Below, piece by piece: positions 8,896-42,809 of a DNA stretch of 49,644 nt. Both the position numbers and the translations under genes were made by a program. This DNA comes from Eubacteriales bacterium. Its GTDB lineage: Bacteria; Bacillota; Clostridia; Oscillospirales; CAG-272. Location: NCBI GenBank assembly GCA_045587785.1, contig JAZNDA010000008.1:1-49644 (forward strand). The letters are read 5' to 3'. The notes below the pieces were generated by a model that saw only the letters and a program-made list of their open reading frames with translations, had not been told where the DNA came from and searched no databases. Within the stretch, counting starts at the first letter, position 1. Each line of letters opens with the position of its first letter.

Positions 8896-8915
8896 ATAAA
8901 ATCATTATGAAAAAA

Positions 8916-9170: not shown

Positions 9171-9188
9171 ATTCGAAAGGAGAACAAC

Positions 9189-10568: not shown

Positions 10569-13084
10569 GCATGAAGCTTTCTTTTTCAACCAAAGGTTGG
10601 CATGGGCTTGGCTTTGATGAATTTTGCGACATGGCGGAAAACGTCAAATTTCAAGGCATTGAGCTTCACAATATCTATAATGAACTGTTTACCGACAAGG
10701 ACGGTGCATTTCACGATTATACCGCCGCAGCCACGCGCAGACGTCTTTATGAGCGTGGGCTGAGCATCCCCTGTATTGACGTGATCGGCGACATTGCCGA
10801 CGGCGAAAAGGCAGATGCTACAGTGGCAGAGATTGAAAAATGCATGGAAATTGCAGGCAATCTGCAAATTCCGTACGTCCGTCTGCGCGCTTCGGCGGCA
10901 GAGGACAGCGAAAAGGCAGTTGCCGCCACCGAAGCATTGCTCTCTCGCGTGCTTCCCATGGCTGAGCAAAACAAGATCACTCTTTTGGTGGAGACCGCGG
11001 GACTTTTCTGCCGCACCGCCCTGCTTCGCGGATTGCTTGACGGCTTTGCGTCCGATAATCTGGGCGCGCTTTGGGACATGTCGGCATCCTTCTTCGAAAG
11101 CGGAGAGACCCCCGAGCAGATCATTCAAAACCTTGGCGCCTACGTCCGCCACGTGCATATCAGCGATGCCGAAATGGTGGATGGTGAGCTTCGCCACTGT
11201 CTGATGGGCGAGGGCGCACTGCCCATCGCCGATATGATGTTGGCACTCCGCTCTGTCAATTACGACGGCTTTATCTCGCTTGTCTGGGCACCCGAATGGT
11301 GCGACGAGCTGGACGATATGGAGATCATCTTTGCCCAATTCGTTAACTATATGAAGCAATTTGGCAACACTTCACGCAATCAGAAGGCGCTTTACTACAA
11401 CCGTGCTCATACGGGTAAATATATTTGGGAAAAGGACCGTTTGATCGATGCCACCTTCTCTGAGGTTCTTGACCGCATGGTGGAGGAATTCCCCGACCAG
11501 TACGCCTTCAAATATACCACGCTGGACTACACACGTACCTACAGCGAGTTCCGCGATGACGTGGACACCTTCGCCCGAGCACTCATTGCGCTTGGCGTTA
11601 AGGCGGGCACACACGTGGCAGTGTGGGCATCCAACGTACCCCAGTGGTACATTGCCTTCTGGGCTACCGTCAAGCTTGGCGCGGTGCTTGTGACGGTCAA
11701 CACCGCGTATAAAATTCACGAGGCGGAATATCTGTTTAAGCAGTCAGATACGCATACACTCATTATGACCGAAGGAGCAAAAGACTGCAAATACGGCGAT
11801 ATCATTGCCGAGCTTTGTCCCGAGCTTGCAAGCAACAAGACGGGCAGTCCGCTTCACTCCAAACGCTTGCCCTTCCTGCGCAACGTCATTACCGTCGGCT
11901 TCCGTCAAAAGGGCTGTATGGACTGGAACGAGGCACTTGAGCACGCCTCGCAGGTGCCGCTGGAAGAAGTACACCGCATGGCGGCACTGGTCAACAAGGA
12001 TGACGTGTGCAACATGCAGTACACCTCGGGTACCACGGGATTCCCCAAGGGCGTTATGCTTACTCACTACAACGTTGTTAACAACGGAAAATATATTGGC
12101 GACCATATGGATCTGTCCACCGCGGACCGCATGATGATTCAAGTGCCGATGTTCCATTGCTTTGGCATGGTGCTTTCGATGACAGCATCGATGACGCACG
12201 GTACAACCATGCTGCCGTTGCCGTATTTCTCCCCGAAGCCTGCGCTTGCCTGCATTCACAATGAGCATATCACTGCCTTTAACGGCGTACCCACAATGTT
12301 CATTGCCATGATGCAGCATGAGGATTTTGAAAAGACCGACTTCTCGTACATGCGCATTGGTATTATGGCAGGTTCCAACTGTCCCGCGGACCTTATGAAG
12401 GAGGCGGCGACGGGTCGTATGCAAATGAAGGAGATCGTTTCGGTATACGGACAGACCGAGGCTTCGCCCGGATGTACGATGAGCAGCTACTACGATTCGC
12501 TTGCGGTGCGTACCGAGACCGTTGGAAGTGCCTTCGCAAATGTCGAGTGTAAGGTCATCGATCCCGAAACGGGCGAGGAATGCCCCGACGGTGTCAACGG
12601 CGAGTTTGTGGCACGCGGCTACAATATCATGAAGGGCTACTACAAGATGCCGATGGGCACTGCCTCCGCCATCGACGCTGAGGGTTGGCTTCATACGGGC
12701 GACCTTGCATGCCGTACCCCCGAGGGCAACTATCTGATCACGGGAAGACTGAAGGACATGATCATCCGCGGCGGCGAAAACATATACCCCAAGGAGATCG
12801 AGGAGTTTATTTATACCTGCCCGAAGGTACGCGACGTACAGGTCATCGGCGTGCCCGACGAGAAGTACGGCGAGGAGATCATGGCTTGCATCATTCTCAA
12901 AGAGGGTGAGGAAATGACGGCAGAGGAAATGAAGGCATATATCGCCGCCAACATGGCAAGACATAAGGTGCCGAGATATATCGATTTCGTCAAATCCTTC
13001 CCCATGAACGCGGCAGGAAAGATCCTCAAGTACAAGATGCGCGAGGAAGCCGTGGAAAAGCTGGGACTTCAAAAAGCAAAATAA
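10565..13084 (+). CDS. Fusion protein: xylose-isomerase-like TIM barrel (sugar phosphate isomerase/epimerase family) + AMP-dependent acyl-CoA synthetase/ligase
   Basis: The first ~270 aa carry AP_endonuc_2-type motifs (LLVETAG, ALWDM, VRHVHISD, ISLVWAPEW). From about aa 300 the adenylate-forming motifs appear (MQYTSGTTGFPKGVMLTH, YGQTEASP, GWLHTGDLA, GENIYPKEIE, AAGKILK). The ATGA start overlaps the upstream stop. Confidence 0.85.
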   Translation: MSMKLSFSTKGWHGLGFDEFCDMAENVKFQGIELHNIYNELFTDKDGAFHDYTAAATRRRLYERGLSIPCIDVIGDIADGEKADATVAEIEKCMEIAGNLQIPYVRLRASAAEDSEKAVAATEALLSRVLPMAEQNKITLLVETAGLFCRTALLRGLLDGFASDNLGALWDMSASFFESGETPEQIIQNLGAYVRHVHISDAEMVDGELRHCLMGEGALPIADMMLALRSVNYDGFISLVWAPEWCDELDDMEIIFAQFVNYMKQFGNTSRNQKALYYNRAHTGKYIWEKDRLIDATFSEVLDRMVEEFPDQYAFKYTTLDYTRTYSEFRDDVDTFARALIALGVKAGTHVAVWASNVPQWYIAFWATVKLGAVLVTVNTAYKIHEAEYLFKQSDTHTLIMTEGAKDCKYGDIIAELCPELASNKTGSPLHSKRLPFLRNVITVGFRQKGCMDWNEALEHASQVPLEEVHRMAALVNKDDVCNMQYTSGTTGFPKGVMLTHYNVVNNGKYIGDHMDLSTADRMMIQVPMFHCFGMVLSMTASMTHGTTMLPLPYFSPKPALACIHNEHITAFNGVPTMFIAMMQHEDFEKTDFSYMRIGIMAGSNCPADLMKEAATGRMQMKEIVSVYGQTEASPGCTMSSYYDSLAVRTETVGSAFANVECKVIDPETGEECPDGVNGEFVARGYNIMKGYYKMPMGTASAIDAEGWLHTGDLACRTPEGNYLITGRLKDMIIRGGENIYPKEIEEFIYTCPKVRDVQVIGVPDEKYGEEIMACIILKEGEEMTAEEMKAYIAANMARHKVPRYIDFVKSFPMNAAGKILKYKMREEAVEKLGLQKAK

Positions 13085-15157: not shown

Positions 15158-15168
15158 ACTGTGGATAA

Positions 15169-15404
15169 TGCAAGGATGAAGTTTGCGCTTTCATACCCGT
15201 ACCGCAGAGAAGGTGCCTTTGGCTGTGAGCACCCGTACGAATGAAATGCCGCGTTTCGCTTCGGAGCAGATTCCGTGAGGCATTGGCATGTAGCGGAATA
15301 CGGTGACACCGTTATATGTCTAAAAAGTGTTGGCTTTGGCTGAAAATACGGGTGGTACCGCGAGTGCTTTTTGCACCTCGTCCTGTTGTGGACGGGGGCT
15401 TTTT
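15169..15404 (+). promoter_or_regulatory. T-box leader, specifier UUC (Phe) at 15255-15257
   Basis: Stem I: base UGC/GCA, a 6-nt bulge, GAAG/CUUC, AG bulge AGAGA (15206-15210), distal loop CTTTGGCTGTGA. Specifier reads U-UUC-G then CUUC-GGA-GCA. T-box core GGTGGTACCGCG at 15351-15362. Terminator CCTCGTCC-TGTTGT-GGACGGGG plus T5. Confidence 0.9.
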
Positions 15405-23868: not shown

Positions 23869-23897
23869 TTGACAAAATCCCCAAACTGTGATAAAAT
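23869..23897 (+). promoter_or_regulatory. Sigma-A promoter of the Val T-box operon
   Basis: TTGACA (23869-23874), 17-nt spacer, TGaTAAAAT (23889-23897). Confidence 0.65.
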
Positions 23898-23913
23898 GAT
23901 TCATGTTTTCAAA

Positions 23914-24176
23914 GGCGTCGACGAAGAGGTCGCAGCGAGAGTTCCCCAAAGAGAGATGGCGGTAGGTGCGAGCCATCGGGAATGCGCCGCGTTTGTAGCT
24001 TCCGAGCCGAGAGGAAGAAAGCAGTTTTGCCGTAGACCCTCTCCGTGATTGCTGCGTCAAGGCATAGGAATTGATAGATTCCAAGAGTGGCGGACTTCCG
24101 CAATTTGAGTGGTACCGCGGGTGTAGTATTTTTACACTCGTCTCAAAGTCATTTCACTTTGGGACGGGTGTTTTTT
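23914..24176 (+). promoter_or_regulatory. T-box leader, specifier GUA (Val) at 23995-23997
   Basis: Stem I helices: GGC/GCC, GAAG/CUUC, CGCAGCG/CGCCGCG, TTCCC/GGGAA, GATGGC/GCCATC. AG bulge AGAGA at 23950-23954 and distal loop GGTAGGTGCGA. Specifier loop reads UUU-GUA-G then CUUC-CGA-GCC. T-box core GAGTGGTACCGCGG at 24107-24120. A 15-bp terminator stem at 24135-24170 is followed by T6. Confidence 0.9.
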
Positions 24177-24199
24177 CGTTCCAAGGAAAGGTAGGAAAA

Positions 24200-26488
24200 A
24201 TGGAAAAGATTACAGGACTTGATTTTAAGATCCAAGAAATGGCGGCAAGAATCCGCGAGCTTCGTGAGATCGAAGGCATCTCTATCGAGGATATGGCGGC
24301 AAAGACAGGCGTTACGCCCACAGAATATGCCGACTGCGAAAGCGGAAAAAGCGATCTGAACTTTACTTTCATTTATCGCTGTGCCCTTGTGTTCGGTGTC
24401 AACGTCACTGATATTATCGAAGGCTACAGCCCCAATCTGCGCTCGTACACCGTAACGCGCGCAGGCGGCGGTCAGCACATTGCGCAGGCGCACGGTATGA
24501 CCTATTATAACCTTGCCTACGCGTTTCAGAACCGTATTGCAGAGCCGCTTTACGTACGAAGCGTTTACGATGAGGGTGCACAGCACCGCGACATCGAGCT
24601 TACCTCCCACGCAGGTCAGGAGTGTGACATCGTGGTTGAGGGACAGCTGATGGTGCAGGTAGGCGACCATAAAGAGATCTTAGGTCCCGGCGACAGCATG
24701 TACTACAACAGCGAAACACCCCACGGCATGATCGCCGTTGGCGGCAAGGACTGTATCTTCTACGCCATCGTTCTCAACCCCACGGGCGAGCCCATCCCCG
24801 AGCTTGTCACGCCCAAGGCGATCGCAAGCACCAGCCAGATCAAATTCGATACCAAGGACCGAATTTACAAGAAATATATTGACGTTACCAAGAACGACAA
24901 AGGCACGCCCACGTCGATCACCTTTAAAAACACGGAGAATTTCAACTTTGCGTTTGACCTTGTGGATGCGCTTGCCGAGCGCGAGCCCGAAAAGCTGGCA
25001 ATGCTCCATATTTCGAAGGATCATACCGAACGCCGTTTCACCTTCCTTGACATAAAGAAGGCATCCGCACAGTGCGCCAACTACTTTAAGTCGCTGGGCA
25101 TCAAGAAGGGCGATAAGGTCATGCTGGTTCTCAAGCGTCACTATCAGTTCTGGTTTGCTATGCTGGGTCTGAATAAGCTGGGTGCCATCGCAATTCCTGC
25201 GCCCAATCAGCTTCAGGAGCATGACTTTGAGTACCGCTTCCGTACCGCAGGCATCAGTGCGATCCTCTGTACGGCAGACGGTGACACAGCATCTCAGATC
25301 GAGGGTGCCGCCAAGGATATTCCCGAACTTAAGCACCGCATCATGGTTGGTGGCGAGCGTGAGGGATGGCGTAATTTCGACGAGGAATACACGCTTTACA
25401 GCACGCGCTATAACCGCACGGAGGACGCCCCGAGCGGCGACGATCTGCTGCTGATGTTCTTCACATCGGGCACGTCTGGCTATCCCAAGATCGCGGCACA
25501 TAATCACAAATATCCGCTTGGTCACTTCCATACGGCAAAATATTGGCACAACGTGGACCCCGACGGACTTCACTTCACCATTTCGGACACGGGATGGGCA
25601 AAGTCCATGTGGGGTAAGCTCTACGGTCAGTGGCTGTGTGAGGCTCCAATCTTTGTTTACGATTTCGACCGTTTTGATGCCGCCGACATTCTTCCGCTGT
25701 TTGCCAAATATCAGATCACCACGTTCTGCGCACCGCCCACCATGCTCCGCATGATGGTCAAGCAGGATATCTCCAAGTATGACCTTTCCTCCGTGCGTCA
25801 CATGACCACGGCAGGCGAGGCACTGAACCCCGAGGTCTACCGCCAGTTTGAAAAGGCAACGGGTCTGCAGATCCTTGAAGGCTTTGGTCAGACCGAAAGC
25901 ACCATGATCATTGGTAATATGCGCGGCGCTTCGCATAAGATCGGCTCTATGGGTAAGCCCGCTCCCATTTACAAGGTCAGCCTTGTGGATACCGAGGGCA
26001 ACCCCGTTCCCGACGGTGAAACGGGCGAGATCGTCATCGACGTTCGTGACGGCGCACCCTGCGGTTTGTTCACGGGCTACTACGGCGACGAAGAAAAGAC
26101 CAAAGAGGTATGGCATGACGGCTTCTATCATACGGGCGACACCGCATGGCGCGATGAGGACGGCTTCTATTGGTACGTCGGACGTGTGGATGACGTCATC
26201 AAGTCCTCGGGCTACCGCATCGGTCCCTTTGAGATCGAGAGCGTTATTATGGAGCTTCCGTACGTCCTTGAATGTGGCGTTTCCGCCGCACCCGATGAGG
26301 TCAGAGGTCAGATCGTCAAGGCAAGCATCGTGCTGACCAAGGGCACAGAGGGCACTGAGGAGCTCAAAAAAGAAATTCAAAACTACGTCAAGGAGCATAC
26401 CGCTCCCTACAAATACCCCCGTCTTGTGGTGTTCCGCGATGAGCTTCCCAAAACCACAAGCGGTAAGATCCAGAGAAACAAGCTATGA
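24200..26488 (+). CDS. Fusion: XRE-type HTH + cupin domain + medium-chain acyl-CoA synthetase (ACSM/MACS clade)
   Basis: The start is set at ATG 24200, after the T-box terminator, with RBS GGAAAGGTAGG. HTH region: AARIRELREIEGISIEDMAAKTGVTPTEYADCESGK. Cupin region: HAGQECDIVVEGQL...GDSMYYNSETPHG. ACS motifs: FFTSGTSGYPK, EGFGQTES, YHTGDTAWRDEDGFYWYVGRVDDVIKSSGYRIGPFEIES, SGKIQR. Confidence 0.85.
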   Translation: MEKITGLDFKIQEMAARIRELREIEGISIEDMAAKTGVTPTEYADCESGKSDLNFTFIYRCALVFGVNVTDIIEGYSPNLRSYTVTRAGGGQHIAQAHGMTYYNLAYAFQNRIAEPLYVRSVYDEGAQHRDIELTSHAGQECDIVVEGQLMVQVGDHKEILGPGDSMYYNSETPHGMIAVGGKDCIFYAIVLNPTGEPIPELVTPKAIASTSQIKFDTKDRIYKKYIDVTKNDKGTPTSITFKNTENFNFAFDLVDALAEREPEKLAMLHISKDHTERRFTFLDIKKASAQCANYFKSLGIKKGDKVMLVLKRHYQFWFAMLGLNKLGAIAIPAPNQLQEHDFEYRFRTAGISAILCTADGDTASQIEGAAKDIPELKHRIMVGGEREGWRNFDEEYTLYSTRYNRTEDAPSGDDLLLMFFTSGTSGYPKIAAHNHKYPLGHFHTAKYWHNVDPDGLHFTISDTGWAKSMWGKLYGQWLCEAPIFVYDFDRFDAADILPLFAKYQITTFCAPPTMLRMMVKQDISKYDLSSVRHMTTAGEALNPEVYRQFEKATGLQILEGFGQTESTMIIGNMRGASHKIGSMGKPAPIYKVSLVDTEGNPVPDGETGEIVIDVRDGAPCGLFTGYYGDEEKTKEVWHDGFYHTGDTAWRDEDGFYWYVGRVDDVIKSSGYRIGPFEIESVIMELPYVLECGVSAAPDEVRGQIVKASIVLTKGTEGTEELKKEIQNYVKEHTAPYKYPRLVVFRDELPKTTSGKIQRNKL

Positions 26489-27153
26489 GAAACTATAAAC
26501 GTATCACGCTTGTTTGCGGTCATTACGGAAGCGGAAAAACAAACGTCGCTGTCAACATGGCGTTTGACCTTAAAAAACAGTTTGATAAGGTCGCGCTTGC
26601 CGATCTGGACATCGTCAATCCCTATTTCCGTGCCAAGGACAGCCAAAAACAGCTTCTTGAGGCAGGCATCCGCTTTATCGGATCGGAATACGCCAACTCC
26701 AACGTGGATATTCCCGCGCTTCCGCAGGATATGTACGCCATCACCGATGATAAGACCATGAAATGTATTCTGGATATCGGCGGAGATGACCGCGGTGCAT
26801 TAGCACTTGGGCGTTTGGCTCCTGCCATTCTTGAAGAAAACGATTACGAGATGCTGATGGTGATCAACCGTTCCCGTCCGCTCTCGCACGACGCCCCCTC
26901 GACCATCGAGATCATGAGAGAGATCGAAACGGCAGGCGGCATCCGCTTCACGGGGCTTATCAACAACACCAATCTCGGCGTGGAAACCACCGTGGAGGAT
27001 ATCCTTGATTCTATCCCCTATGCAAAAGAGGTCTCGGCACTGTCGGGACTGCCCCTTGTGGCAACCTCCGTACGGCAGGACCTTGCCCCCGCCCTTGAAG
27101 GAAAAGCGGAAAACATCTTCCCTCTTGTCCTTCATCAATTTCAAAACATTTGA
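26485..27153 (+). CDS. P-loop NTPase (SIMIBI/CooC-MinD-like), function unknown
   Basis: Walker A GHYGSGKTN, followed by LADLDIVNPYFR. 222 aa. The ATGA start overlaps the ACS stop. Confidence 0.6.
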   Translation: MRNYKRITLVCGHYGSGKTNVAVNMAFDLKKQFDKVALADLDIVNPYFRAKDSQKQLLEAGIRFIGSEYANSNVDIPALPQDMYAITDDKTMKCILDIGGDDRGALALGRLAPAILEENDYEMLMVINRSRPLSHDAPSTIEIMREIETAGGIRFTGLINNTNLGVETTVEDILDSIPYAKEVSALSGLPLVATSVRQDLAPALEGKAENIFPLVLHQFQNI

Positions 27154-27179
27154 TTTTACACAGAAAGGAAAAATAAATC

Positions 27180-27386
27180 ATGGCAAAACTGACATTCAAA
27201 ACCGATTTCTGCAAGGGCTGTGGACTTTGCGTGGATGTTTGTCCCAAAAAGGTTCTCAGACTTGCCACAGACAAGATCAACAAAAAAGGACACCATCCCG
27301 CCGAGGCGATCGACGAGAGCGCTTGCGTTGGCTGTGCATCCTGCGCAATGATGTGTCCCGACTGCATTATCAAAGTGGAAAGGTGA
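27180..27386 (+). CDS. 2-oxoacid:ferredoxin oxidoreductase delta subunit (2x[4Fe-4S] ferredoxin)
   Basis: CKGCGLCVDVCP and CVGCASCAMMCP motifs. 68 aa. Confidence 0.85.
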   Translation: MAKLTFKTDFCKGCGLCVDVCPKKVLRLATDKINKKGHHPAEAIDESACVGCASCAMMCPDCIIKVER

Positions 27387-27395
27387 GTGAAAACA

Positions 27396-28463
27396 ATGTC
27401 TGAAAAAGTACTTATGAAAGGTAACGAAGCCATTGCCGAGGCGGCGATCATTGCAGGCTGCCGTCATTACTTCGGTTACCCCATTACCCCCCAGACCGAG
27501 ATCGCCGCATATATGGCAAAGAGAATGCCCAAGATCGGCGGTACGTTCCTTCAGGCAGAGAGTGAGATCGCTGCCATCAATATGGTTTACGGCGTTGCCG
27601 CTGCAGGCTACCGCGTTATGACTTCCTCCTCCAGCCCCGGTGTATCGCTTAAGGGCGAAGGTCTATCTTACCTCGCGGGTGCGGATCTGCCTTCTTTCAT
27701 TGTCAACGTACAGCGCGGAGGCCCCGGTCTTGGCGGCATCCAACCCAGCCAGTCGGACTACTTCCAGGCAACCAGAGGCGGCGGACACGGTGACTATCAC
27801 ATGATCGTGCTTGCTCCCGCATCGGTACAGGAGATGGCAGAGCTTACCGTTCGCGGCTTCGAGCTTGCCGATACCTACCGCATGACCACCATGGTGCTTG
27901 CAGACGGTACCATGGGACAGATGATGGAGCCCGTTTCGCTTGACTTTGACGTAAAGCCTCAGATCGAAAAGCCCTGGGCAACCACGGGCACGGGAATGAA
28001 ACGTCCCCACAATATCGTCAACTCGCTCTTCCTTGACCCCGAGGAGCTTGAGAAATTTAACTTTGACCGCTATAAGCGTTATGAGCAGATCGAGAAGAAC
28101 GAGGTACTCTATGAGGAATATCTCATGGACGATGCCGAGATCGCCATCGTTGCCTTCGGTATTGCCGCACGTGTGGCTAAGAGTGCCATCAACGAGGCAA
28201 GAACCCTTGGCATCAAGGCAGGTATGATCCGTCCGATCACCCTTTGGCCCTTCCCCAAGGCTCCCTTCAAGAAGGCCGCCGGCAAAGTAAAGCAGTACAT
28301 ATCGGTTGAGCTTTCCATGGGTCAGATGATCGAGGACGTAAAGCTTGCAAGCGAATGTCGCGTGCCTGTCACGCTTTGCAATCGCGTGGGCGGTATGATC
28401 CCCTCTCCCGCACAGGTGCTTGAAAGCATCAAGAATGCCGCAAAGAACGGAGGTAACAACTAA
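27396..28463 (+). CDS. 2-oxoacid:ferredoxin oxidoreductase alpha subunit
   Basis: LMKGNEAIAEAAIIAGCRHYFGYPITPQTEI is a typical KorA/VorA N-terminus. ATG 27396 lies 9 nt after AGGTGA. An in-frame GTG at 27387 is an alternative start. Confidence 0.85.
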   Translation: MSEKVLMKGNEAIAEAAIIAGCRHYFGYPITPQTEIAAYMAKRMPKIGGTFLQAESEIAAINMVYGVAAAGYRVMTSSSSPGVSLKGEGLSYLAGADLPSFIVNVQRGGPGLGGIQPSQSDYFQATRGGGHGDYHMIVLAPASVQEMAELTVRGFELADTYRMTTMVLADGTMGQMMEPVSLDFDVKPQIEKPWATTGTGMKRPHNIVNSLFLDPEELEKFNFDRYKRYEQIEKNEVLYEEYLMDDAEIAIVAFGIAARVAKSAINEARTLGIKAGMIRPITLWPFPKAPFKKAAGKVKQYISVELSMGQMIEDVKLASECRVPVTLCNRVGGMIPSPAQVLESIKNAAKNGGNN

Positions 28464-29218
28464 TGGCTGTAGTATTTGATAAACCCCATGCACTTGCCGA
28501 TGTGCCGCTTCATTACTGCCCCGGATGCACCCACGGTATCGTTCACCGCTTGGTTGCCGAGGTTCTGGATGAGCTTGAGATCGAGGGCAAAACCATCGGT
28601 ATCGCCCCCGTCGGTTGCTCGGTTATGGCATACAACTATTTTAACTGCGATATGATCGAAGCCGCTCACGGCCGTGCGCCCGCTGTGGCTACGGGTGTTA
28701 AGCGTGCCAATCCCGAAAACGTGGTCTTCACCTATCAGGGTGACGGCGACCTTGCGTCCATCGGTATGGCGGAGACCGTCCATGCCGCGGCAAGAAACGA
28801 AAACATCACCATCATCTTTATCAACAACGCGATCTACGGTATGACGGGCGGTCAGATGGCGCCCACGTCGCTTGTAGGTCAGGTCACACAGACCTCTCCT
28901 TACGGCAGAGATCCCAAGGCGTGCGGCTATCCCATCCGTGTGTGCGAAATGCTTTCGGAGCTGGAGGGCCCCGAGTATCTGGCTCGTGTGACCGTTAACA
29001 CCGTACCGAGGATCCGCGAGGCAAAAAAAGCAATCAAGAAGGCATTCCAGAATCAGCTTGAGGGCAAGGGCTTCTCACTGGTAGAAGTGGTCTCCACCTG
29101 CCCCACCAACTGGGGTATGACACCAAAGGCGGCTCTCCAGTGGATCGACGAGAAGATGCTTCCCCAGTATCCGCTCGGCGTATATAAGGACAGAACCGCA
29201 AAGGAGGAAACAAAATGA
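28463..29218 (+). CDS. 2-oxoacid:ferredoxin oxidoreductase beta subunit (TPP-binding)
   Basis: YCPGCTHGI plus the TPP motif GDGDLASIGMAE...NNAIYGMTGGQ. TAATG overlap with the alpha subunit. Confidence 0.88.
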   Translation: MAVVFDKPHALADVPLHYCPGCTHGIVHRLVAEVLDELEIEGKTIGIAPVGCSVMAYNYFNCDMIEAAHGRAPAVATGVKRANPENVVFTYQGDGDLASIGMAETVHAAARNENITIIFINNAIYGMTGGQMAPTSLVGQVTQTSPYGRDPKACGYPIRVCEMLSELEGPEYLARVTVNTVPRIREAKKAIKKAFQNQLEGKGFSLVEVVSTCPTNWGMTPKAALQWIDEKMLPQYPLGVYKDRTAKEETK

Positions 29219-29748
29219 GCACCAAACAACTTCTTTTCTCCGGCTTTGGCGGACAGGGTATTCTGTTTGCAGGAAAATTTATCGCCTATAAGGGCCTCAT
29301 CGACAATAAGCAGGTAAGCTGGCTTCCCTCTTACGGCCCCGAAATGCGCGGCGGTACGGCAAGCTGCGGTGTTATTGTCAGCGATGAGCCCGTTGGCTCT
29401 CCCATCGTTTCCGCTCCCGACGTGCTGATCGCCATGAACCTGCCCTCTCTTGATAAATATGAAGACTCGGTGGCATCGGGCGGCATCATTCTTCTTGACT
29501 CCTCGCTTATCGAGCGTAAGGTTAGACGCACCGACGTGACCGTGTACGCCATCCCCGCAACTCAGATGGCAAGCGATAACGGCATGCCTACCCTTGCCAA
29601 CATGATCCTTGTCGGAAAGCTGCTGAAGGCACTTGACGACTTTGGCGAGGAAAGCGTATCCGCGGCACTTAAGAAGGTAATTTCCGCAAAGCATGCAGAC
29701 ATGATGGACGTCAACCGCAAGGCGATGCAGCTTGGCGCGGACTATTGA
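29215..29748 (+). CDS. 2-oxoacid:ferredoxin oxidoreductase gamma subunit
   Basis: FSGFGGQGILFAGKF...PSYGPEMRGGTA is typical of the gamma subunit. ATGA overlap with the beta subunit. Confidence 0.85.
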   Translation: MSTKQLLFSGFGGQGILFAGKFIAYKGLIDNKQVSWLPSYGPEMRGGTASCGVIVSDEPVGSPIVSAPDVLIAMNLPSLDKYEDSVASGGIILLDSSLIERKVRRTDVTVYAIPATQMASDNGMPTLANMILVGKLLKALDDFGEESVSAALKKVISAKHADMMDVNRKAMQLGADY

Positions 29749-29763
29749 TCGGAGGAAATAAAA

Positions 29764-30828
29764 ATGGAAATCAGATTTGAAAAAAATACAGCTCCCAAGC
29801 AGAAGCCCGACAGCAGTATACTTGGCTTCGGTAAGTTCTTCACCGACCATATGTTCATGATGGACTATTCGGCAGATGAGGGATGGCATGACGCACGCAT
29901 TATCCCCTTTGGTCCTTTGGCGATTCACCCTGCCTGCACCGCACTTCACTACGGCTCGGAGATCTTTGAGGGTCTTAAGGCGTACAGACGTGCCGACGGT
30001 AAGGTGCAGATGTTCCGTCCCATGGAGAACATCCGCCGTATGAACAACTCGGCAGAGCGTCTTTGCCTGCCTCAGATCCCCGAGGATCTGGCACTTGAGG
30101 TTCTCACAAAATTTGTGGCAACCGAGCAGGAGTGGACACCGTCAGCTTCGGGCACCTCGCTTTATCTGCGTCCGTTTATGTTCGGAAACGATGAAACGCT
30201 GGGCGTTCATGCCGTTCACCATGCTACTTTTGTCATTATCGCCTCTCCCGTCGGAAGCTACTATAAAGAGGGCATCAACCCCGTCAAGATCATGATCGAG
30301 GACGAGGACGTCCGCGCTGTACGCGGCGGTACGGGCTATGCCAAGTGCGGCGGCAACTATGCCGCATCCAACCGCGCAGGCGAGCGCGCCGAGAAGAAGG
30401 GATACTCGCAGGTGCTTTGGCTGGACGGCGTGGAGAGAAAGTACATTGAGGAAGTCGGTGCCATGAACGTCATGTTCAAGATCGACGGCAAGATCGTCAC
30501 CCCCATGCTCAGCGGCTCCATCCTTCCCGGTATCACCCGTAAATCCTGCATTGAAGTGCTGAAAAAGGAGGGCTATGAGGTTGAAGAAAGACTTCTGAGC
30601 ATCGACGAGCTTGACGAGGCACTGAAGAGCGGCAAGCTGGAAGAGGCGTGGGGTTGCGGCACCGCAGCCGTTGTTTCCCCGATCGGCGAGCTTTGCTATA
30701 AGGATAATAAGTACATTATCAACGATGGCAAGATCGGTGCAGTCACCCAAAAGCTGTATGACACTCTGACAGGCATCCAGTGGGGCGCTCTTGAGGATTG
30801 CTTCGGCTGGACTTACGCTATTGACTGA
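29764..30828 (+). CDS. ilvE: Branched-chain amino acid aminotransferase (fold type IV)
   Basis: 354 aa: FTDHMF...LHYGSEIFEGLKAYR...GGTGYAKCGGNYAAS...EEVGAMNVMF...GITR. Confidence 0.9.
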   Translation: MEIRFEKNTAPKQKPDSSILGFGKFFTDHMFMMDYSADEGWHDARIIPFGPLAIHPACTALHYGSEIFEGLKAYRRADGKVQMFRPMENIRRMNNSAERLCLPQIPEDLALEVLTKFVATEQEWTPSASGTSLYLRPFMFGNDETLGVHAVHHATFVIIASPVGSYYKEGINPVKIMIEDEDVRAVRGGTGYAKCGGNYAASNRAGERAEKKGYSQVLWLDGVERKYIEEVGAMNVMFKIDGKIVTPMLSGSILPGITRKSCIEVLKKEGYEVEERLLSIDELDEALKSGKLEEAWGCGTAAVVSPIGELCYKDNKYIINDGKIGAVTQKLYDTLTGIQWGALEDCFGWTYAID

Positions 30829-30851
30829 CCAAGACAACCATAGATATTCAC

Positions 30852-30890
30852 AACCGTCGGAGAATGTATGCGCGTTCTCCGACGGTTTTT
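30852..30890 (+). terminator. Strong rho-independent terminator ending the Val T-box operon
   Basis: 13-bp stem AACCGTCGGAGAA/TTCTCCGACGGTT followed by TTT. Confidence 0.85.
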
Positions 30891-30973
30891 GTCGAGAAAA
30901 TGTTAAACTTTTTGAAAAAGCGGTTGACAAAACTACATTAGGTGGTGTATAATATAAGAAAGGCGGTGAAGGC

Positions 30974-32513: not shown

Positions 32514-32540
32514 CCGTTTGCCTTGTATTGCCACCCTTTT

Positions 32541-33782
32541 TTACTCCGCGAGGTCACCCATCTGATTCAGCATATTCTCAATAAATATCCCATATCCCGT
32601 AGCAGGATCTCCCACCATAACGTGCGTCACCGCCCCCACGATCTTGCCGTTTTGTATGATTGGACTGCCGGACATGCCCTGCACGATACCGCCCGTTTTT
32701 TCGATCAGAGCTTTGTCGGTAACTTTGACAATAAAGCATTTTCCTCCCGTCGCATCGCGATTGATGTTTTGGATCTCAATACGGTATTTGCCGATGCAGT
32801 TATCGTCCAAGGTGCAGTAAATATATGCCTCCCCCTCCTTGACCTCATTTCTGAGAGCCAACGGCAGTGGTTCTTCGGCTGTCTTTGGGCACTGGGCAAA
32901 CACGCCAAACACGCCGCACTCATCGTTTCCAACCAGCGTACCCGTTTTACCCGCATTGAAAAATCCCCTCAGCTCTCCCGGTGTTCCGCTGACACCTTTA
33001 TTGATACCGCTGATGGTCACATCCACGACGTTGCCGCGTGCAATGGGGACCAGCTCACCCGTATCGGTGTCGCAAATGCCGTGACCAAGCCCTGCAAAGC
33101 AGTTGCTTTCGGGGAAAATAAAGCTGACCGTGCCGATGCCCGCACCGTTGTCCTTTACCCACATGCCTGTTTTATAGATGCCTTCACTCTCCGAAAAGAT
33201 GGGCGTCACGATGGTCTTGTGGGTCTGCTCCCCCCGTTTATACTCGATCGTAAGCGGCTTGCCCTCGCACGCTTCTACCATCTCAGTCAGCTCAAGGGCG
33301 CTTGCCGGCTCCTTGCCGTTCACGTGCGTGATGATATCCTTTTGCCTCAGACCCGCACTGTAGGCAGGATTGACCTTGCCATCCTTTGTATCTATGTCGC
33401 AAAAGCCGATCACGGGAATCCCTTTGGTGAAAAACTTCACCCCGAACGGCATGCCGCCGGGATAGAGCTTCATATCTTTATAGGATGTCAGCTTGGCGGT
33501 CTTCAGAGGGATCACACCAAGCAGCCTGTATTCCGCCTCACACTCATAAAACAAGCTGTCCTTATACTCAAAGCACTGTGCGTCATCGCCGATCAGCAGA
33601 GCATCCGCACCGAGAAAGGACGGAATGTCCTCTCCCTCAAGCACCGAGATGCGGTCGGGGATCATGCACCGATATATGCCAAGCACCGTAAGCAGCACAA
33701 GCATGAGCGCCACGGTGGCTCGGAGCACAAATTTCATTTTTGGGTTGTACTTATATTTCATTTGCCTACGCTTCCTTATCAT
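32541..33782 (-). CDS. spoIVB: SpoIVB peptidase (S55) with PDZ domain
   Basis: GIGTVSFIFPESNCFAGLGHGICD and QGMSGSPIIQNGKIVGAVTHV carry the catalytic His and Ser contexts. The PDZ segment is GLRQKDIITHVNGK. The start codon is uncertain (33782, 33761 or 33737). Confidence 0.9.
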   Translation of the reverse strand: MIRKRRQMKYKYNPKMKFVLRATVALMLVLLTVLGIYRCMIPDRISVLEGEDIPSFLGADALLIGDDAQCFEYKDSLFYECEAEYRLLGVIPLKTAKLTSYKDMKLYPGGMPFGVKFFTKGIPVIGFCDIDTKDGKVNPAYSAGLRQKDIITHVNGKEPASALELTEMVEACEGKPLTIEYKRGEQTHKTIVTPIFSESEGIYKTGMWVKDNGAGIGTVSFIFPESNCFAGLGHGICDTDTGELVPIARGNVVDVTISGINKGVSGTPGELRGFFNAGKTGTLVGNDECGVFGVFAQCPKTAEEPLPLALRNEVKEGEAYIYCTLDDNCIGKYRIEIQNINRDATGGKCFIVKVTDKALIEKTGGIVQGMSGSPIIQNGKIVGAVTHVMVGDPATGYGIFIENMLNQMGDLAE

Positions 33783-33942
33783 TCAAATGTTTTTTGCATT
33801 GGGTTGCATGGGTTAATCTGTGTCAAAATGACCGCTTTCATGTCTAACAAATTTGATTCAAAGTGGCAATTTTTTATTACGGTTACTGTTTTTTATTTTA
33901 TGATAAAAGCCAAAAAGATATACAGCCAAAAGGAGTGTAAAT

Positions 33943-34710
33943 ATGGTAAGCGAACAAGAAAAAGTTAAATTCGAAAAAATTTGCCAAGGCGTATCCGAAA
34001 AAAACAGTGAGTGGCAAGGTATAGGTACATATCAAGAAAAAACACTGCACAGGGTCCTCAAAAGCTATCTGTGTCCCGACACCGACTTCCACGAGACCGC
34101 AGTGGGACCGTACGTTGCGGATATCGTTTTGAACGATACGATATACGAGATTCAAAGCGCGGGGCTGTTTCCCCTCAAAAAAAAGCTGGCGTATTATCTG
34201 TCAAACACCGATAAGCAGATACAAATCGTCTGTCCCGTGCTCAGTGCCAAGCGCGTCATTTGGGTAGACACGCAAAGCGGAGAAACGTCAACACCCAGAA
34301 AAAGCCCCGTGGGGCACGGCAAAATGCGCGTTTTGCCCGAACTGTTCTATCTTCTGGACGTTCTCGATTTTAACAGAGTTTCTCTTGCTATTGTTAGCAT
34401 AACAGCCGACGATTATAAGCTTCTTGACGGAAAAAAGGGCGACAAAAAGCGCGGTGCCTCCCGTCTTGAGAGACTGCCGCGCGAGCTCACAGATCTTGTG
34501 TATATCCGCTCCGCCATAGATCTTGCCAATTATTTTTTGCCCGAAAATTTGCCAACGACCTTCACTGCTGCCGAATTTTCCCGTCTGACGCATTTGCGTC
34601 GCCGAACGCTCAGTGCCGCCCTCAAGGTACTTTTGCACTTTGAGATCATCAATCGGGGCGACAAGATCGGAAACGCCATACGCTATCAGATAGCACAAAA
34701 AAATTGCTGA
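33943..34710 (+). CDS. Hypothetical protein with PD-(D/E)xK-like nuclease motif
   Basis: 255 aa. GPYVADIVLNDTIYEIQSAG fits a D...E-x-Q/K restriction-endonuclease-like core of the CoiA-like type. The C-terminus could be a winged-helix domain. Confidence 0.45.
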   Translation: MVSEQEKVKFEKICQGVSEKNSEWQGIGTYQEKTLHRVLKSYLCPDTDFHETAVGPYVADIVLNDTIYEIQSAGLFPLKKKLAYYLSNTDKQIQIVCPVLSAKRVIWVDTQSGETSTPRKSPVGHGKMRVLPELFYLLDVLDFNRVSLAIVSITADDYKLLDGKKGDKKRGASRLERLPRELTDLVYIRSAIDLANYFLPENLPTTFTAAEFSRLTHLRRRTLSAALKVLLHFEIINRGDKIGNAIRYQIAQKNC

Positions 34711-37078: not shown

Positions 37079-38086
37079 TTACTCCTTAAACTCCTTTGCA
37101 CTTTTTTTCATCATTTCCCGAATGGGAAGGTGATACGGACACCTTTGCTCACACACGCCGCACTCCACACAAGCGGACGCCTTTACAGGTAGCGTCGCAT
37201 ATCTCTCTCTTGCCCAGTCCGCAAGACCGTATCTTTCAATATAGCCTGCAAACAAAAACACGCTTGGGATATGGATGCCCACCGTACACGGCGCACAGTA
37301 ATTGCATCTGCGGCAGAAATTGGTACCAAGCTGATCCCGAATCTGCTCGATCTTTGCAATTTCCTCACCTGAAAGTGGCGCGGGATCGTCTGCCGCCAGA
37401 CAGTTCATCTTGACCTCATCCACACTTGCCATACCTGGGATGACCACATCCACTGCGGGATTTTGGCAAATAAATCTCATTGCCAGTGTCGCATCCTCAA
37501 TGGCACCGCCCGCCAAAGGCTTCATGCAGATAAAGCCCACGTTTTTCCTTTGACATTGGTCGATCAGCTCCTGCCCCTGCGTTTCCACAATATTGTAAGG
37601 AAACATGATGGTCTCCACAAAGTCAAGCTCAAGAGCACGGCGGAAGGTCTCAAGCGAATGTGCCGTAAGACCGATATGCTTGATCTTCCCCTCTGCTTTG
37701 GCTTCAAGCAAAGCCTCTACAAGTCCGCCTTTTTCCAGTGCCGCATCTATTTTGTCGGGCGCAATATTGTGGATCTGATAAAGGTCGATATAATCGGTTC
37801 TGAGGTTCTCAAGACTGGTCTGAATGTCGGCGCGCATGCTCTCCGCCGTTTTCGCCATACTCTTGGATGCCAAAATAAACTTGTCCCGTCTGCCCTCAAG
37901 TGCCTTACCGATCAGTTCCTCGCTGACAGTATAAGCCCTTGCCGTATCGATAAAATTGATACCCTGCTCTATCAGACTGTCTATCAGTGCCACTGCACCC
38001 TCTGCATCCACCTTCTGAATGGGAATGCCGCCAAAGCCGACTGCGGACACCGAAAGTCCCGTTTTGCCGAGAACGTGATATTGCAT
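37079..38086 (-). CDS. Aldo/keto reductase with C-terminal 4Fe-4S ferredoxin-like domain
   Basis: MQYHVLGKTGLSVSAVGFGG...IDTARAY is an AKR N-terminus. Cys clusters are CRRCNYCAPC and CVECGVCEQRCP. The start is moved to ATG 38086, which has an RBS. Confidence 0.8.
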   Translation of the reverse strand: MQYHVLGKTGLSVSAVGFGGIPIQKVDAEGAVALIDSLIEQGINFIDTARAYTVSEELIGKALEGRRDKFILASKSMAKTAESMRADIQTSLENLRTDYIDLYQIHNIAPDKIDAALEKGGLVEALLEAKAEGKIKHIGLTAHSLETFRRALELDFVETIMFPYNIVETQGQELIDQCQRKNVGFICMKPLAGGAIEDATLAMRFICQNPAVDVVIPGMASVDEVKMNCLAADDPAPLSGEEIAKIEQIRDQLGTNFCRRCNYCAPCTVGIHIPSVFLFAGYIERYGLADWARERYATLPVKASACVECGVCEQRCPYHLPIREMMKKSAKEFKE

Positions 38087-38241
38087 ACTTTCCGTACCTT
38101 TCTCATCTGTGATTCTCACATCCGTACATATTGTAGCATATTTTTCGCCTTTTGGCAACCGGTATGAGAGAAAAAAACACAATTCATGTCAAATATTTTC
38201 TATAAAAATCACCTGCCCAAAAACGGGCAAGTGATCTTACT

Positions 38242-42768: not shown

Positions 42769-42809
42769 CCCCCCTATTAAAGGAGGATATGCCGCCTACT
42801 AAAAAAGTG

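Follow-up and report, generated by a model that had tools for sequence, protein, structure and literature searches.

The conversion of isobutyrate, a fermentation acid, to valine has been known through labelling since the 1960s, and T-boxes are known to induce their downstream genes in response to uncharged cognate tRNA. No paper linking a T-box to the isobutyrate-to-valine route was found in a full-text literature search. Two described acyl-CoA ligases bear on the first step. Macs from M. acetivorans (3ETC) prefers 2-methylbutyrate and depends critically on Trp259 (PMC10455477), and MbcS has Km values of 8.9 uM for isobutyrate, 5.5 uM for 2-methylbutyrate and >500 uM for isovalerate (PMC11167679). 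The ligase described here is encoded in a 49,644-nucleotide stretch of DNA (the window) from an uncultured gut Clostridium. It is 58% identical to Macs (E 1.7e-183) and conserves the KYW motif that corresponds to MacsMa Trp259. Its best NCBIfam model is MbcS, a preferential user of isobutyrate and 2-methylbutyrate, though the score (439) is below the equivalog cutoff (850). We propose that it is an isobutyrate-CoA ligase, the acid substrate being inferred. Relatives are present in 593 species genomes. The Val-T-box operon to which the ligase belongs most likely carries out the conversion of isobutyrate to valine, and so makes a pathway traced by labelling accessible at the level of genes.

The operon (23869-30892, forward strand) is a single transcription unit with one promoter, one terminator and overlapping or abutting genes (Table 1). 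The junctions are ATGA (ligase/P-loop), TGA|GTG (delta/alpha), TAATG (alpha/beta) and ATGA (beta/gamma), and the first gene starts with ATG. The promoter scores 11/12 with the TG of the extended −10 present (−10 hexamer at 23892-23897), and the −35, TGTGnTAnAAT and an A-tract UP element are all kept in 41 anchored orthologous promoters. An earlier, sequence-only reading had described this promoter and seven tightly linked genes with their domains, and both are confirmed, the latter by Pfam and NCBIfam models and by the junctions. The closing terminator it described is also present (dG −27 kcal/mol, z −6.4), but the hairpin folds as 16 bp rather than the 13 bp claimed. The next promoter lies at 30924 (12/12 matches).

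Table 1. Features of the Val-T-box operon in window coordinates.
Feature	Position	Strand	Details
Sigma-70-type promoter	23869..23897	+	−35 TTGACA 23869-23874, 17-nt spacer, extended −10 TGaTAAAAT
T-box leader	23909..24148	+	RF00230 82.8 bits, E 1.5e-18, model positions 1-219
Specifier GUA (Val)	23995..23997	+	covariance-model register; purine G next at 23998
Conserved T-box sequence AAUUUGAGUGGUACCGCG	24102..24119	+	invariant, 32/32 aligned leaders; covariance-model alignment
Leader intrinsic terminator	24134..24177	+	16-pair stem 24134-24171 and T-run
HTH_3/HTH_19 + Cupin_2 (aa 1-~237) :: AMP-forming acyl-CoA ligase, Macs/MbcS type, 762 aa	24200..26488	+	Pfam, NCBIfam
SIMIBI-class P-loop NTPase, 222 aa	26485..27153	+	Walker A GHYGSGKT; Pfam CbiA 30.8 bits
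OFOR delta, 68 aa, 2x[4Fe-4S] ferredoxin-like	27180..27386	+	Pfam Fer4 x2
OFOR alpha, VorB type, 358 aa	27387..28463	+	NF005507 VorB; Pfam POR_N + PFOR_II
OFOR beta, TPP-binding, 251 aa	28463..29218	+	PF02775
OFOR gamma, 177 aa	29215..29748	+	PF01558 POR, 127.5 bits
Branched-chain amino acid aminotransferase, IlvE class II, 354 aa	29764..30828	+	NF009897, TIGR01123
Operon-closing intrinsic terminator	30852..30892	+	16-bp hairpin 30852-30887, then UUUUU

The leader had been read as a complete T-box, and this holds, since it matches RF00230 end to end and strong covariation is found in 32 orthologous leaders. Stem I contains the GA/K-turn motif, the specifier loop, the AGAGA bulge and the distal loop, and is followed by Stem II, the IIA/B region, Stem III and the antiterminator. 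The default scan missed this T-box because its score is under the Rfam gathering score (93); orthologous leaders score 92-102 bits. In the 32 leaders, 96.3% of cells are paired against 87.2% in shuffles, and double-change cells number 243 against 68 expected; none of 500 shuffles matches these values. The covariation score is 0.41, compared with at most 0.13 when the partners are slid. The leader terminator overlaps the 3' half of the antiterminator to form competing structures, and pairing reaches 98.4% in its stem, which is helix 11 in the alignment. The UGGU bulge (24110-24113), which pairs with the tRNA 3' end NCCA, lies within the conserved T-box sequence. It is consistent with the discriminator A suggested by the sequence-only reading but does not discriminate, because UGGU also occurs in the other two T-boxes of the window. 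The leader probably acts as a T-box riboswitch of the transcription-attenuation type, specific for tRNA-Val, with tRNA binding and antitermination inferred.

With charged tRNA-Val, the leader terminator stem would form and transcription would stop. When tRNA-Val is uncharged, its anticodon UAC would pair with the GUA of the specifier loop in Stem I and its free 3' NCCA with the UGGU bulge, stabilizing the antiterminator and allowing RNA polymerase to enter the operon. The Macs/MbcS-type ligase domain may then convert exogenous isobutyrate, ATP and CoA to isobutyryl-CoA, which the four-subunit VorB-type OFOR could reductively carboxylate with CO2 and reduced ferredoxin to 2-oxoisovalerate. The IlvE-II aminotransferase (NF009897, 484.8 bits, cutoff 307; TIGR01123, 400.4 bits, cutoff 250) would form valine from this 2-oxoacid. 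We regard such a valine-starvation-induced route from isobutyrate to valine as the likely function of the operon, although its substrates, reductive direction and induction are inferred.

The gene order ligase-P-loop-OFOR-BCAT recurs in 70 of the 78 informative loci. Of these, 48 show it in full, another 18 agree with it as far as a truncating contig end allows, and in 4 the BCAT stands second. The conserved association of T-box, ligase, OFOR and BCAT supports the isobutyrate-to-valine module proposed from the sequence alone. Five related genomes have a Val T-box and ligase without a nearby OFOR. A paralogous ligase behind a paralogous T-box lies just upstream in 67 of 80 loci, and the specifier of this T-box is AUC (Ile) in every readable case (61/61). 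Since the Val-operon leaders read GUN and the paralogue leaders AUC, the codon of the T-box follows the ligase paralogue, which one would expect if each of the ligases activated the acid matching one amino acid. This pairing is the strongest of the new arguments for the reading. Val leaders are 64-70% identical to Ile leaders, and both are 44-58% identical to Leu and Phe leaders. Six catalytic-domain positions tell the Val-linked from the Ile-linked ligase. The Val-linked enzyme is bulkier at four positions (A467/G, M470/L, A482/G and M569/L), with 467 and 470 located in the GWxKxxWG segment. A distant fusion pair (41% identity) with an aminotransferase also occurs behind an Ile T-box. Most related genomes carry the unit in the centre of an array of Ile-ligase, Val-operon and Leu-operon T-box units.

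The array raises the possibility, which we hold tentatively, that OFOR and BCAT accept all three branched acyl-CoAs and 2-oxoacids, the Val T-box gating a common core supplied by dedicated ligases: the Ile-linked one, the Val-linked one and the ligase in the Leu T-box operon, which belongs to a different family. The Ile-linked ligase forms a single-gene unit that includes neither OFOR nor BCAT; hence the OFOR is not specific for valine, or there are other enzymes. The median distance between the stop codon of this ligase and the Val −35 is 31 nt, indicating that the Ile unit reads into the Val leader, and the Leu T-box unit often stands 3' of the aminotransferase. Characterized VORs and BCATs are active on all three branched substrates. 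MbcS-type enzymes take iC4 and aC5 but not iC5, which fits the use of another ligase family under the Leu T-box. However, isoleucine limitation alone would leave the Val terminator blocking expression of OFOR and BCAT, and the substrate ranges of both enzymes are only inferred. In the window, moreover, the operon adjoins no Leu unit and no Ile paralogue, and the latter is absent from all of its 49.6 kb. A shared core extends the isobutyrate-to-valine explanation and does not contradict it.

The direction of the isobutyrate-to-valine route is inferred from its regulation, because T-box induction on uncharged tRNA only makes sense for valine production. OFOR reactions can run either way, and VORs are known chiefly from the breakdown of amino acids. 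BCAT and OFOR might instead take valine to isobutyryl-CoA, with the ligase adding scavenged isobutyrate to the same pool. This isobutyryl-CoA would prime branched-chain fatty acids, as with MbcS in S. aureus, or feed fermentation. MbcS, the best NCBIfam match of the ligase, does serve branched-chain fatty acid synthesis, but the operon contains no fatty-acid synthesis genes and AMP-forming ligases conserve no ATP in the fermentative direction. Furthermore, the T-box would then induce valine consumption during valine starvation, which is counter-productive, and the same T-box logic recurs with Ile- and Leu-specific T-boxes. An oxidative or primer-supplying role is thus very unlikely.

The OFOR is most likely a VOR, an assignment that rests on an NCBIfam subfamily model and gene context, with the substrate inferred. 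The alpha subunit passes NF005507 VorB (540 bits, cutoff 399, covering positions 2-350 of 352) and fails the KorA/OorA models (237, cutoff 579), though it is far from the characterized archaeal VOR alpha model NF006232 (62.6 versus 646). The nearest PDB entries are 1YD7, 8YS5 and 6N2N for alpha, and 8YS5_C and 6N2N_B for beta. Among these nearest solved relatives, 8YS5 and 6N2N are 2-oxoglutarate enzymes and 1YD7 has no assigned substrate, and the best NCBIfam models for delta are OGOR_delta and OorD (OGOR_delta and PorD_KorD below cutoff). These matches would suit, for example, a synthase of 2-oxoglutarate or of 2-oxoacids in general; the genes would then be grouped with a BCAT and a Val T-box for nitrogen or 2-oxoacid supply and not for isobutyrate assimilation. 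We consider this very unlikely in view of the alpha scores. The first gene of the operon, moreover, encodes a ligase of the branched short-chain type; its product calls for precisely a branched-chain OFOR, and its paralogue tracks the Ile codon.

The valine specificity of the leader depends on the register of the specifier. The covariance model pairs GUUUGUAG with GAAauucA and thereby places GUA, and no other codon, in the slot, as the sequence-only reading had it; G, the CUUC helix, CGA and GC follow. The pheST leader (15164-15388) gives UUC+G in the identical register, again as read before, and the third T-box of the window (8911-9143), upstream of a leuA-like gene, gives CUC+A. The GUA register is validated because UUC, CUC and the AUC of the paralogue leaders fall in the same slot. 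All 77 orthologous leaders carry a valine codon there, GUA in 74 and GUC in three, a synonymous change (L038, L042 and L050). UGU (Cys), one base upstream and kept in 76 of 77 leaders, would mean that the leader does not sense tRNA-Val, but this is scarcely credible, given the model placement, the right codons that the GUA slot yields for the pheST, leuA-like and Ile paralogue leaders, a locus (L002) with GGU in the −1 frame that retains GUA, the C instead of a purine that would follow a UGU codon in three loci, together with an extra base before the helix, and an operon without any cysteine-related gene.

The HTH-like/metal-cupin module accompanies the ligase in every case, fused to it in the window and encoded in distant lineages by its own gene, which is translationally coupled. 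The cupin triad H137/E141/H175 is conserved. A repressor role is doubtful because the "HTH" segment is acidic and no operator is conserved; the segment is probably not a classical DNA-binding domain.

The P-loop NTPase is an OFOR-associated SIMIBI-class protein of unknown role, and all its homologues are named "hypothetical". The AF2 model (pLDDT 86) has its best Foldseek matches in SRP54/FtsY and ATPase-type HypB (TM 0.5-0.6). A homologue with 41% identity precedes delta-alpha in one locus (L085). In the related genomes, the NTPase is found wherever VOR is found and is missing from ligase-only loci.

The T-box leader and the seven genes that follow it (the Val operon) form one unit, whose elements are listed in the table below together with related features. 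The sequence-only reading had laid out the same unit. The promoter that it proposed is present, and the tight gene overlaps that it noted are seen at the junctions as ATGA, TGA/GTG, TAATG, and ATGA. Its gene products are also confirmed by the searches, namely an HTH-cupin::acyl-CoA synthetase as the first gene (Pfam and NCBIfam), a P-loop NTPase (GHYGSGKT Walker A motif and SIMIBI fold), the delta, alpha, beta, and gamma subunits of a 2-oxoacid:ferredoxin oxidoreductase (OFOR; TPP-binding beta subunit, gamma subunit, and a delta subunit with two [4Fe-4S] motifs), and a branched-chain aminotransferase (BCAT) that passes two curated equivalog models. The sole correction concerns the closing terminator, which is present but has a stem of 16 bp instead of 13 bp.

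Features of the Val operon and of related units (positions in the window unless a locus from another genome is named)
Feature	Position	Strand	Evidence or remark
Promoter TTGACA-17 nt-TGaTAAAAT	23869-23897	+	11/12 matches, extended -10 TG
Val operon T-box leader	23909-24148	+	RF00230 model positions 1-219, 82.8 bits, E 1.5e-18
Specifier GUA	23995-23997		RF00230 specifier slot
Leader intrinsic terminator, 16-pair stem and T-run	24134-24171	+	5' arm is the antiterminator 3' arm
First gene start, ATG	24200	+	
HTH_3/HTH_19 and Cupin_2 :: AMP-forming acyl-CoA ligase, 762 aa	24200-26488	+	Pfam, NCBIfam, 3ETC
P-loop protein, 222 aa	26485-27153	+	weak CbiA match
OFOR delta, alpha, beta, gamma	27180-29748	+	PF02775, PF01558, Fer4 x2
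IlvE class II aminotransferase	29764-30828	+	NF009897 484.8 (cutoff 307), TIGR01123 400.4 (cutoff 250)
Closing terminator, 16-bp hairpin then U5	30852-30887	+	dG -27 kcal/mol, z -6.4
Next gene's own promoter	30924		12/12 matches
pheST leader	15164-15388		specifier UUC + G; 84.8 bits, under Rfam gathering threshold
Leu T-box unit	8911-13084		T-box 105.5 bits
leuA-like operon leader	8911-9143		specifier CUC + A
leuA-like gene	9189-10568		
AP_endonuc_2 TIM-barrel::FadD-like acyl-CoA ligase fusion, 839 aa	10565-13084		
Upstream paralogue unit, L003	5099-7656		specifier AUC; absent from window
Upstream paralogue unit, L001	5092-7648		specifier AUC; absent from window
Upstream paralogue unit, L009	4148-6694		specifier AUC; absent from window
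Two tandem cupin::ligase fusions and aminotransferase, L082	1438-7978		769 and 758 aa fusions
Split module and ligase genes, L085	507-2342		
Split module and ligase genes, L084	748-2510		
Split module and ligase genes, L086	363-2077		
SAM-I/IV riboswitch, L081	3020-3152		60.3 bits, above gathering score

The best supported reading of this unit, and in our judgment a probable one, is the route from isobutyrate to valine induced by valine starvation, as the sequence-only reading had proposed; the substrates, the direction, and the induction are inferred. The ligase would convert isobutyrate to isobutyryl-CoA, from which the OFOR would form 2-oxoisovalerate with CO2 and reduced ferredoxin, and the BCAT would convert 2-oxoisovalerate to valine. 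The support comes from a Val specifier in all 77 orthologous leaders and from a paralogous ligase that tracks the Ile codon.

Alignment of the leader to RF00230 gives an end-to-end match with GUA in the specifier slot, and the leader is thus complete, as had been claimed. The match does not reach the gathering score (93 bits), and for this reason the leader is missed by the default Rfam scan, which reports just one T-box in the window (that of the leuA-like operon) and a tRNA-Arg. A permissive scan adds the Val operon and pheST leaders, so that two of the three window T-boxes are invisible by default. The orthologous leaders score 83-101.6 bits, and that of locus L003 exceeds the gathering score. 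In the covariance-model alignment, the GA/K-turn motif, the specifier loop, the AGAGA bulge, and the distal loop of Stem I are all present. The T-box sequence AAUUUGAGUGGUACCGCG, identical in 32 of 32 aligned leaders, carries the UGGN bulge within the antiterminator, for which the intrinsic terminator is the competing fold.

The fold of the leader is supported by covariation in an alignment of 32 diverse leaders, whose consensus structure consists of Stem I, Stem II, the IIA/B region, Stem III, and the terminator. Compensatory changes are found in helices 1-4, and changes on both sides occur at 35 of the 63 consensus pairs. Standard pairs are formed in 96.3% of the cells (87.2% after shuffling), and 243 cells are changed on both sides (68 after shuffling); none of the 500 shuffles attained the observed values. 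The covariation score is 0.41, as against 0.13 or less when the 3' partners are slid by 1-3 columns. Binding of uncharged tRNA-Val and tRNA-dependent antitermination by this leader are inferred without binding data. The window contains no tRNA-Val gene, its sole tRNA gene being that of tRNA-Arg(CCU).

The fused ligase has relatives in 593 species-level genomes of human and ruminant gut origin. The 80 best of these (78-94% identity), taken from species-representative genomes, are all from MAGs of such guts that are assigned to Oscillospiraceae or Acutalibacteraceae or are of the Ruminococcus type. In a survey of these loci for the combination of T-box, ligase, OFOR, and ilvE, the canonical seven-gene order is full in 48 of the 80 loci and consistent up to an intervening contig end in 18. 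The BCAT gene is shifted to second place in four loci, and in three the P-loop and OFOR genes are present without a BCAT gene at that place; five loci have the ligase only, and two have insufficient downstream sequence. The T-box core lies about 90 nt 5' of the ligase start in essentially all 80 loci.

The DNA upstream of the aligned promoters usually codes for the C-terminus of another ligase. In 67 of the 80 loci, a paralogous HTH/cupin-ligase (62-69% identical) with its own T-box is located directly 5' of the Val operon, and its specifier is AUC (Ile) by the covariance model in L001, L003, and L009 and by a register-matched scan in 61 of 61 usable loci. The median distance from the stop codon of the paralogue to the -35 element of the Val operon is 31 nt, indicating that the Ile unit reads into the Val leader and that two T-box units stand in series. 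The Val and Ile leaders share 64-70% identity, as against 44-58% with the Leu or Phe leaders. Judging from sequence comparison, the leader and the gene were duplicated together and the specifier was switched afterwards, which would make the pair a clean evolutionary example of such a switch. A Leu (CUC/CUG) T-box is found 3' of the BCAT gene in about 20 loci and divergently upstream in others, and these Leu units control the same atypical leuA-like gene as that in the window. The Ile paralogue is not found in the window (49.6 kb), where the Leu unit is 15 kb from the Val operon.

The catalytic domain of the ligase is 58% identical over 516 residues (E 1.7e-183) to Macs of Methanosarcina acetivorans (3ETC). 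Its best-scoring NCBIfam model is that of MbcS, the short branched-chain acyl-CoA synthetase of Staphylococcus aureus (NF047394, 439.4 bits), though the equivalog cutoff of 850 is not reached, and the ANL fold is supported by PF00501 (218.5 bits) and PF13193 (75.6 bits). The C-terminal PKTTSGKIQRN, with the catalytic Lys, aligns with PKTISGKIRR of 3ETC. The two enzymes prefer short branched acids: Macs, with Trp259 as an alternate pocket residue, prefers 2-methylbutyrate (PMC10455477), and MbcS shows Km values of 8.9 uM for isobutyrate and 5.5 uM for 2-methylbutyrate, with isovalerate above 500 uM (PMC11167679). The window ligase resembles them in keeping the KYW motif with this Trp (TAKYW in both the window ligase and 3ETC). 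It differs from them in an N-terminal HTH-like/cupin module of about 237 aa, which neither characterised enzyme has, in the occurrence of Val- and Ile-linked paralogues, and in serving, by its context, an amino-acid route and not lipid synthesis. A catabolic or lipid-primer role of the operon is improbable, since a T-box induces upon uncharged tRNA.

Comparison of 81 Val-linked with 61 Ile-linked ligases shows clean separation at only six positions of the catalytic domain, as listed below.

Catalytic-domain positions that separate Val-linked from Ile-linked ligases
Position	Val-linked	Ile-linked	3ETC
325	N	H	H132
467	A	G	G278
470	M	L	V281
482	A	G	C293
569	M	L	V380
572	G	A	A383

At four of the six, the Val-linked ligase carries the bulkier residue; at three, the Ile-linked residue agrees with that of 3ETC, which prefers 2-methylbutyrate. 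The GWxKxxWG segment, which we take to be the GWVTG acyl-pocket segment of acetyl-CoA synthetase, contains positions 467 and 470, whereas 569 and 572 come after the GQTE motif. As far as sequence comparison goes, these residues would fit a smaller pocket for a C4 acid in the Val-linked ligase. The preference of the ligases for isobutyrate or 2-methylbutyrate is inferred, and the paralogue-specific residues are only indirect evidence for it. The TIM-barrel::AMP-binding fusion of the Leu unit was rejected as a further paralogue because its identity to the Val-linked ligase is only 25%, which puts it in another subfamily.

The main rival to the isobutyrate-to-valine reading is really an extension of it, in which one core of OFOR and BCAT handles all three branched acids and the ligases confer the specificity. 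The serial Ile and Val units may be read in this way; we hold the extension to be quite possible, at somewhat below an even chance.

The substrate of the OFOR should be considered separately. Its alpha subunit passes the VorB subfamily model NF005507 (540.1 bits against a cutoff of 399) but does not meet the equivalog model of the archaeal 2-oxoisovalerate enzyme (VOR) alpha subunit, NF006232 (62.6 bits, cutoff 646). The nearest PDB entries (1YD7, 8YS5, and 6N2N) are 2-oxoglutarate-type or without an assigned substrate, and solved structures were therefore set aside as a guide. Since the subunit is distant from archaeal VOR and its solved relatives are uninformative, the substrate call depends on the subfamily model and the context. 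Activity with 2-oxoisovalerate and isobutyryl-CoA, including the carboxylating direction, is inferred without an assay. An OFOR that is not of the branched-chain type would fit the nearest solved relatives and is opposed by the VorB match and by the branched short-chain type of the ligase; we regard it as no less improbable than the catabolic role.

A specifier in another register is the weakest alternative, and is very improbable in view of the covariance model and the control leaders. The model pairs GUUUGUAG with the consensus GAAauucA, which places GUA in the slot where the sequence-only reading had it; GUA and the following G directly abut the CUUC helix in the specifier loop. In each control leader, the codon in this slot is the expected one: UUC, which this reading had used as an internal control, in the pheST leader, CUC in that of the leuA-like operon, and AUC in the upstream paralogue leaders. 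Among 77 orthologous leaders, the slot holds GUA in 74 and GUC in three, followed by G in 68 and A in nine. The triplet UGU, one base upstream, is likewise conserved (76 of 77), and the assignment thus rests on the model register and the controls and not on conservation alone. In L002, GUA is retained although the triplet one base upstream is GGU. A UGU (Cys) register was rejected on the same two grounds. The UGGU bulge, which had been taken to fit the tRNA, is present but carries no specific information, as all three window T-boxes have it. The T-box at 8911 was also considered as the pheST leader and rejected, being the Leu (CUC) leader of the leuA-like gene. In the ten genes that were counted, GUA is the rarest Val codon (37 of 260; GUG 86, GUU 70, and GUC 67).

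The P-loop protein is annotated as hypothetical in every source. Its GHYGSGKT motif is invariant among the homologues, and the AlphaFold model (pLDDT 86) has SRP54/FtsY and ATPase-type HypB as the nearest Foldseek folds (probability 1.0, TM 0.5-0.6). The protein shares the SIMIBI P-loop fold with HypB, UreG, CooC, Mrp/NBP35, and SRP54/FtsY, and its gene adjoins metallo/Fe-S enzyme genes, as those of the metalloenzyme-assisting members do, whereas the signatures of these subfamilies are absent. The alignment shows neither a deviant Walker A KGG nor NKxD (NNxNL instead), and Cys pairs are not conserved; except for C11 and H13 close to the P-loop, there is no conserved metal-binding motif of Cys or His. 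With the low TM values and without subfamily motifs, the protein fits none of these subfamilies. A function as an Fe-S carrier or a NifH-like ATP-driven reductase is unsupported, given the lack of a Cys pair and of a deviant Walker A and the generic fold neighbours. In the 80 loci, the gene is there when the OFOR is there and missing when it is missing, and a homologue with 41% identity precedes the delta-ferredoxin and OFOR alpha genes in the distant locus L085. The P-loop protein is a conserved companion of the OFOR, with no role assigned.

The N-terminal module of the ligase consists of an HTH-like domain and a cupin (PF12844, 39.9 bits; PF01381, 35.4 bits; PF07883, 45.7 bits). This layout of an HTH-like alpha domain and cupin_2 is shared with HppE and with XRE-HTH/cupin regulators such as PuuR, but the module differs from both in its link to a ligase, by fusion or by translational coupling, and from the DNA-binding regulators in a strongly acidic HTH region. 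The net charge is about -6 for residues 1-78 and about -4 for the recognition-helix region, and the acidity holds for the 81 and 61 fused ligases and 42 stand-alone relatives. The 41 anchored orthologous promoters share the -35, the -10, and a UP element, with no other conserved operator-like motif, and no clear palindrome is found in the divergent intergenic regions of the split versions. Judging from sequence alone, the DNA-binding surface and conserved operator expected of a PuuR-like regulator are therefore missing. The best match of solved structure is HppE, which covers both domains weakly (E about 1e-3) and whose metal triad, His-Glu-His, has its counterpart in the conserved H137/E141/H175 of the module. 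The acidic charge, the lack of an operator, and the HppE match argue against a classical repressor or autoregulator. We regard the module instead as a partner of the ligase, possibly a metal- or ligand-sensing domain, as far as sequence allows such a call; DNA binding is not excluded but finds no support in these data.

Six paralogue-specific positions and a 2-residue indel also fall in this module, and fusions of module and ligase persist in clusters down to 41% identity. In locus L082, two tandem cupin::ligase fusions behind a T-box (65 bits, specifier AUC) are followed by a class I/II aminotransferase; P0289, the protein matched there, is 41% identical to the window module. L084, L085, and L086 have a 190-aa gene for the module alone, which overlaps or abuts an AMP-binding ligase gene. 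The split gene of L085 is divergent from a P-loop-Fer4-OFOR alpha operon at a distance of 87 nt, which is too short for a T-box, so that regulation there must differ. In L081, a SAM-I/IV riboswitch lies about 600 nt 3' of the distant cupin::ligase fusion P0261 and is probably unrelated to it.

The chemistry proposed for the Val operon is old. Rumen and gut anaerobes form branched-chain amino acids (BCAAs) from branched-chain volatile fatty acids by reductive carboxylation, as was reportedly established by the labelling studies of Allison, Bryant, and Peel in the 1960s-70s. This conversion, known from labelling for sixty years, underlies the use of isoacids as ruminant feed additives. Methanogens have an anabolic VOR (EC 1.2.7.7). 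To our knowledge, the genes and control of the conversion in gut Firmicutes are poorly defined. The proposed conversion of isobutyrate to valine with reduced ferredoxin and CO2 is the classical one, whereas the labelling work defined the physiology and neither genes nor regulation, and the operon adds to the classical scheme a SIMIBI NTPase and a cupin module, both conserved. A Prevotella paper of 2020 regards the reverse reaction via EC 1.2.7.7 as unproven but possible in theory (PMC7709123).

In regulation, the leader shares its RNA family and mechanism (specifier-anticodon pairing, UGGN with the uncharged 3' end, and antiterminator against terminator) with T-boxes of the ilv-leu type, the ilv-leu operon of B. 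subtilis having a Leu-specific T-box. T-boxes of that type act on the acetolactate pathway (ilvBHCD/leuABCD), none of whose ilvBHCD genes lies within the window, whereas the Val operon encodes an acid-salvage ligase, a ferredoxin-dependent 2-oxoacid synthase, and an aminotransferase, and its leader belongs to a set of paralogues with switched specifiers (GUA/AUC) on paralogous ligases. T-box control of BCAA biosynthesis is documented in Bacillales and Clostridia (PMC2494555), and two T-box regulon surveys, this one among them, do not mention ferredoxin, oxidoreductase, or acyl-CoA genes. In open-access full text, no description was found of a T-box on a ligase-OFOR-BCAT operon or of paired ligase and specifier paralogues, though a prior report elsewhere is not excluded. 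T-box control of BCAA biosynthesis and the classical chemistry are thus known already, and the T-box on the ligase-OFOR-BCAT operon is apparently new.

The locus offers a complete candidate gene set for the old pathway, including the sensor and paralogue-specific ligases, and is open to testing. The specifier codons (GUA, AUC, and CUC) name the amino acid of each unit and predict the substrates of the ligase paralogues before any assay. Public annotation of these proteins is generic (acetyl-CoA synthetase, cupin protein, HTH regulator, or hypothetical protein); metabolic reconstructions probably overlook the route and may wrongly class its carriers as auxotrophic for BCAAs. The ties of a SIMIBI NTPase to the OFOR and of a metal-cupin module to an acyl-CoA ligase are both conserved and unexplained.

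The Leu unit of the window could be the leucine/isovalerate arm of the same system. Taken together, the locus would then belong, as one of three arms, to an isoacid-salvage system of a large clade of uncultured Oscillospiraceae/Acutalibacteraceae from gut and rumen, a reading that we offer as tentative and, as a joint whole, rather unlikely. Uncharged tRNA-Ile, -Val, and -Leu would each switch on a dedicated carboxylate-CoA ligase via its own T-box, and the products of all three ligases would enter a single core of a reductive VorB-type OFOR and the BCAT. This core would depend on the SIMIBI NTPase, hitherto unrecognised, acting either in assembly or as an ATP-coupled aid to uphill carboxylation, and gating of the ligases would fall to a metal-cupin sensor module of the HppE kind and not to a repressor. 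If this three-armed reading is true, the organisms depend partially or wholly on branched-chain fermentation acids for their BCAAs, and the system explains at the molecular level why fibre-degrading anaerobes classically require isoacids.

The leuA-like gene of the Leu unit has a remodelled active site, in which RDGEQ is lost or shifted to CREG and HCHND is replaced by HCDNK. It scores below the cutoff of all IPMS models, keeps the LeuA regulatory domain, and is translationally coupled to the TIM-barrel::ligase fusion. Elsewhere in the window, three ORFs (481, 255, and 366 aa) at 32523-34710 and 42618-43718 have no Pfam match. At 37079-38182 (minus strand), a gene for an aldo/keto reductase with a fused 4Fe-4S dicluster domain adjoins those for a PFK-family kinase and a short-chain dehydrogenase.
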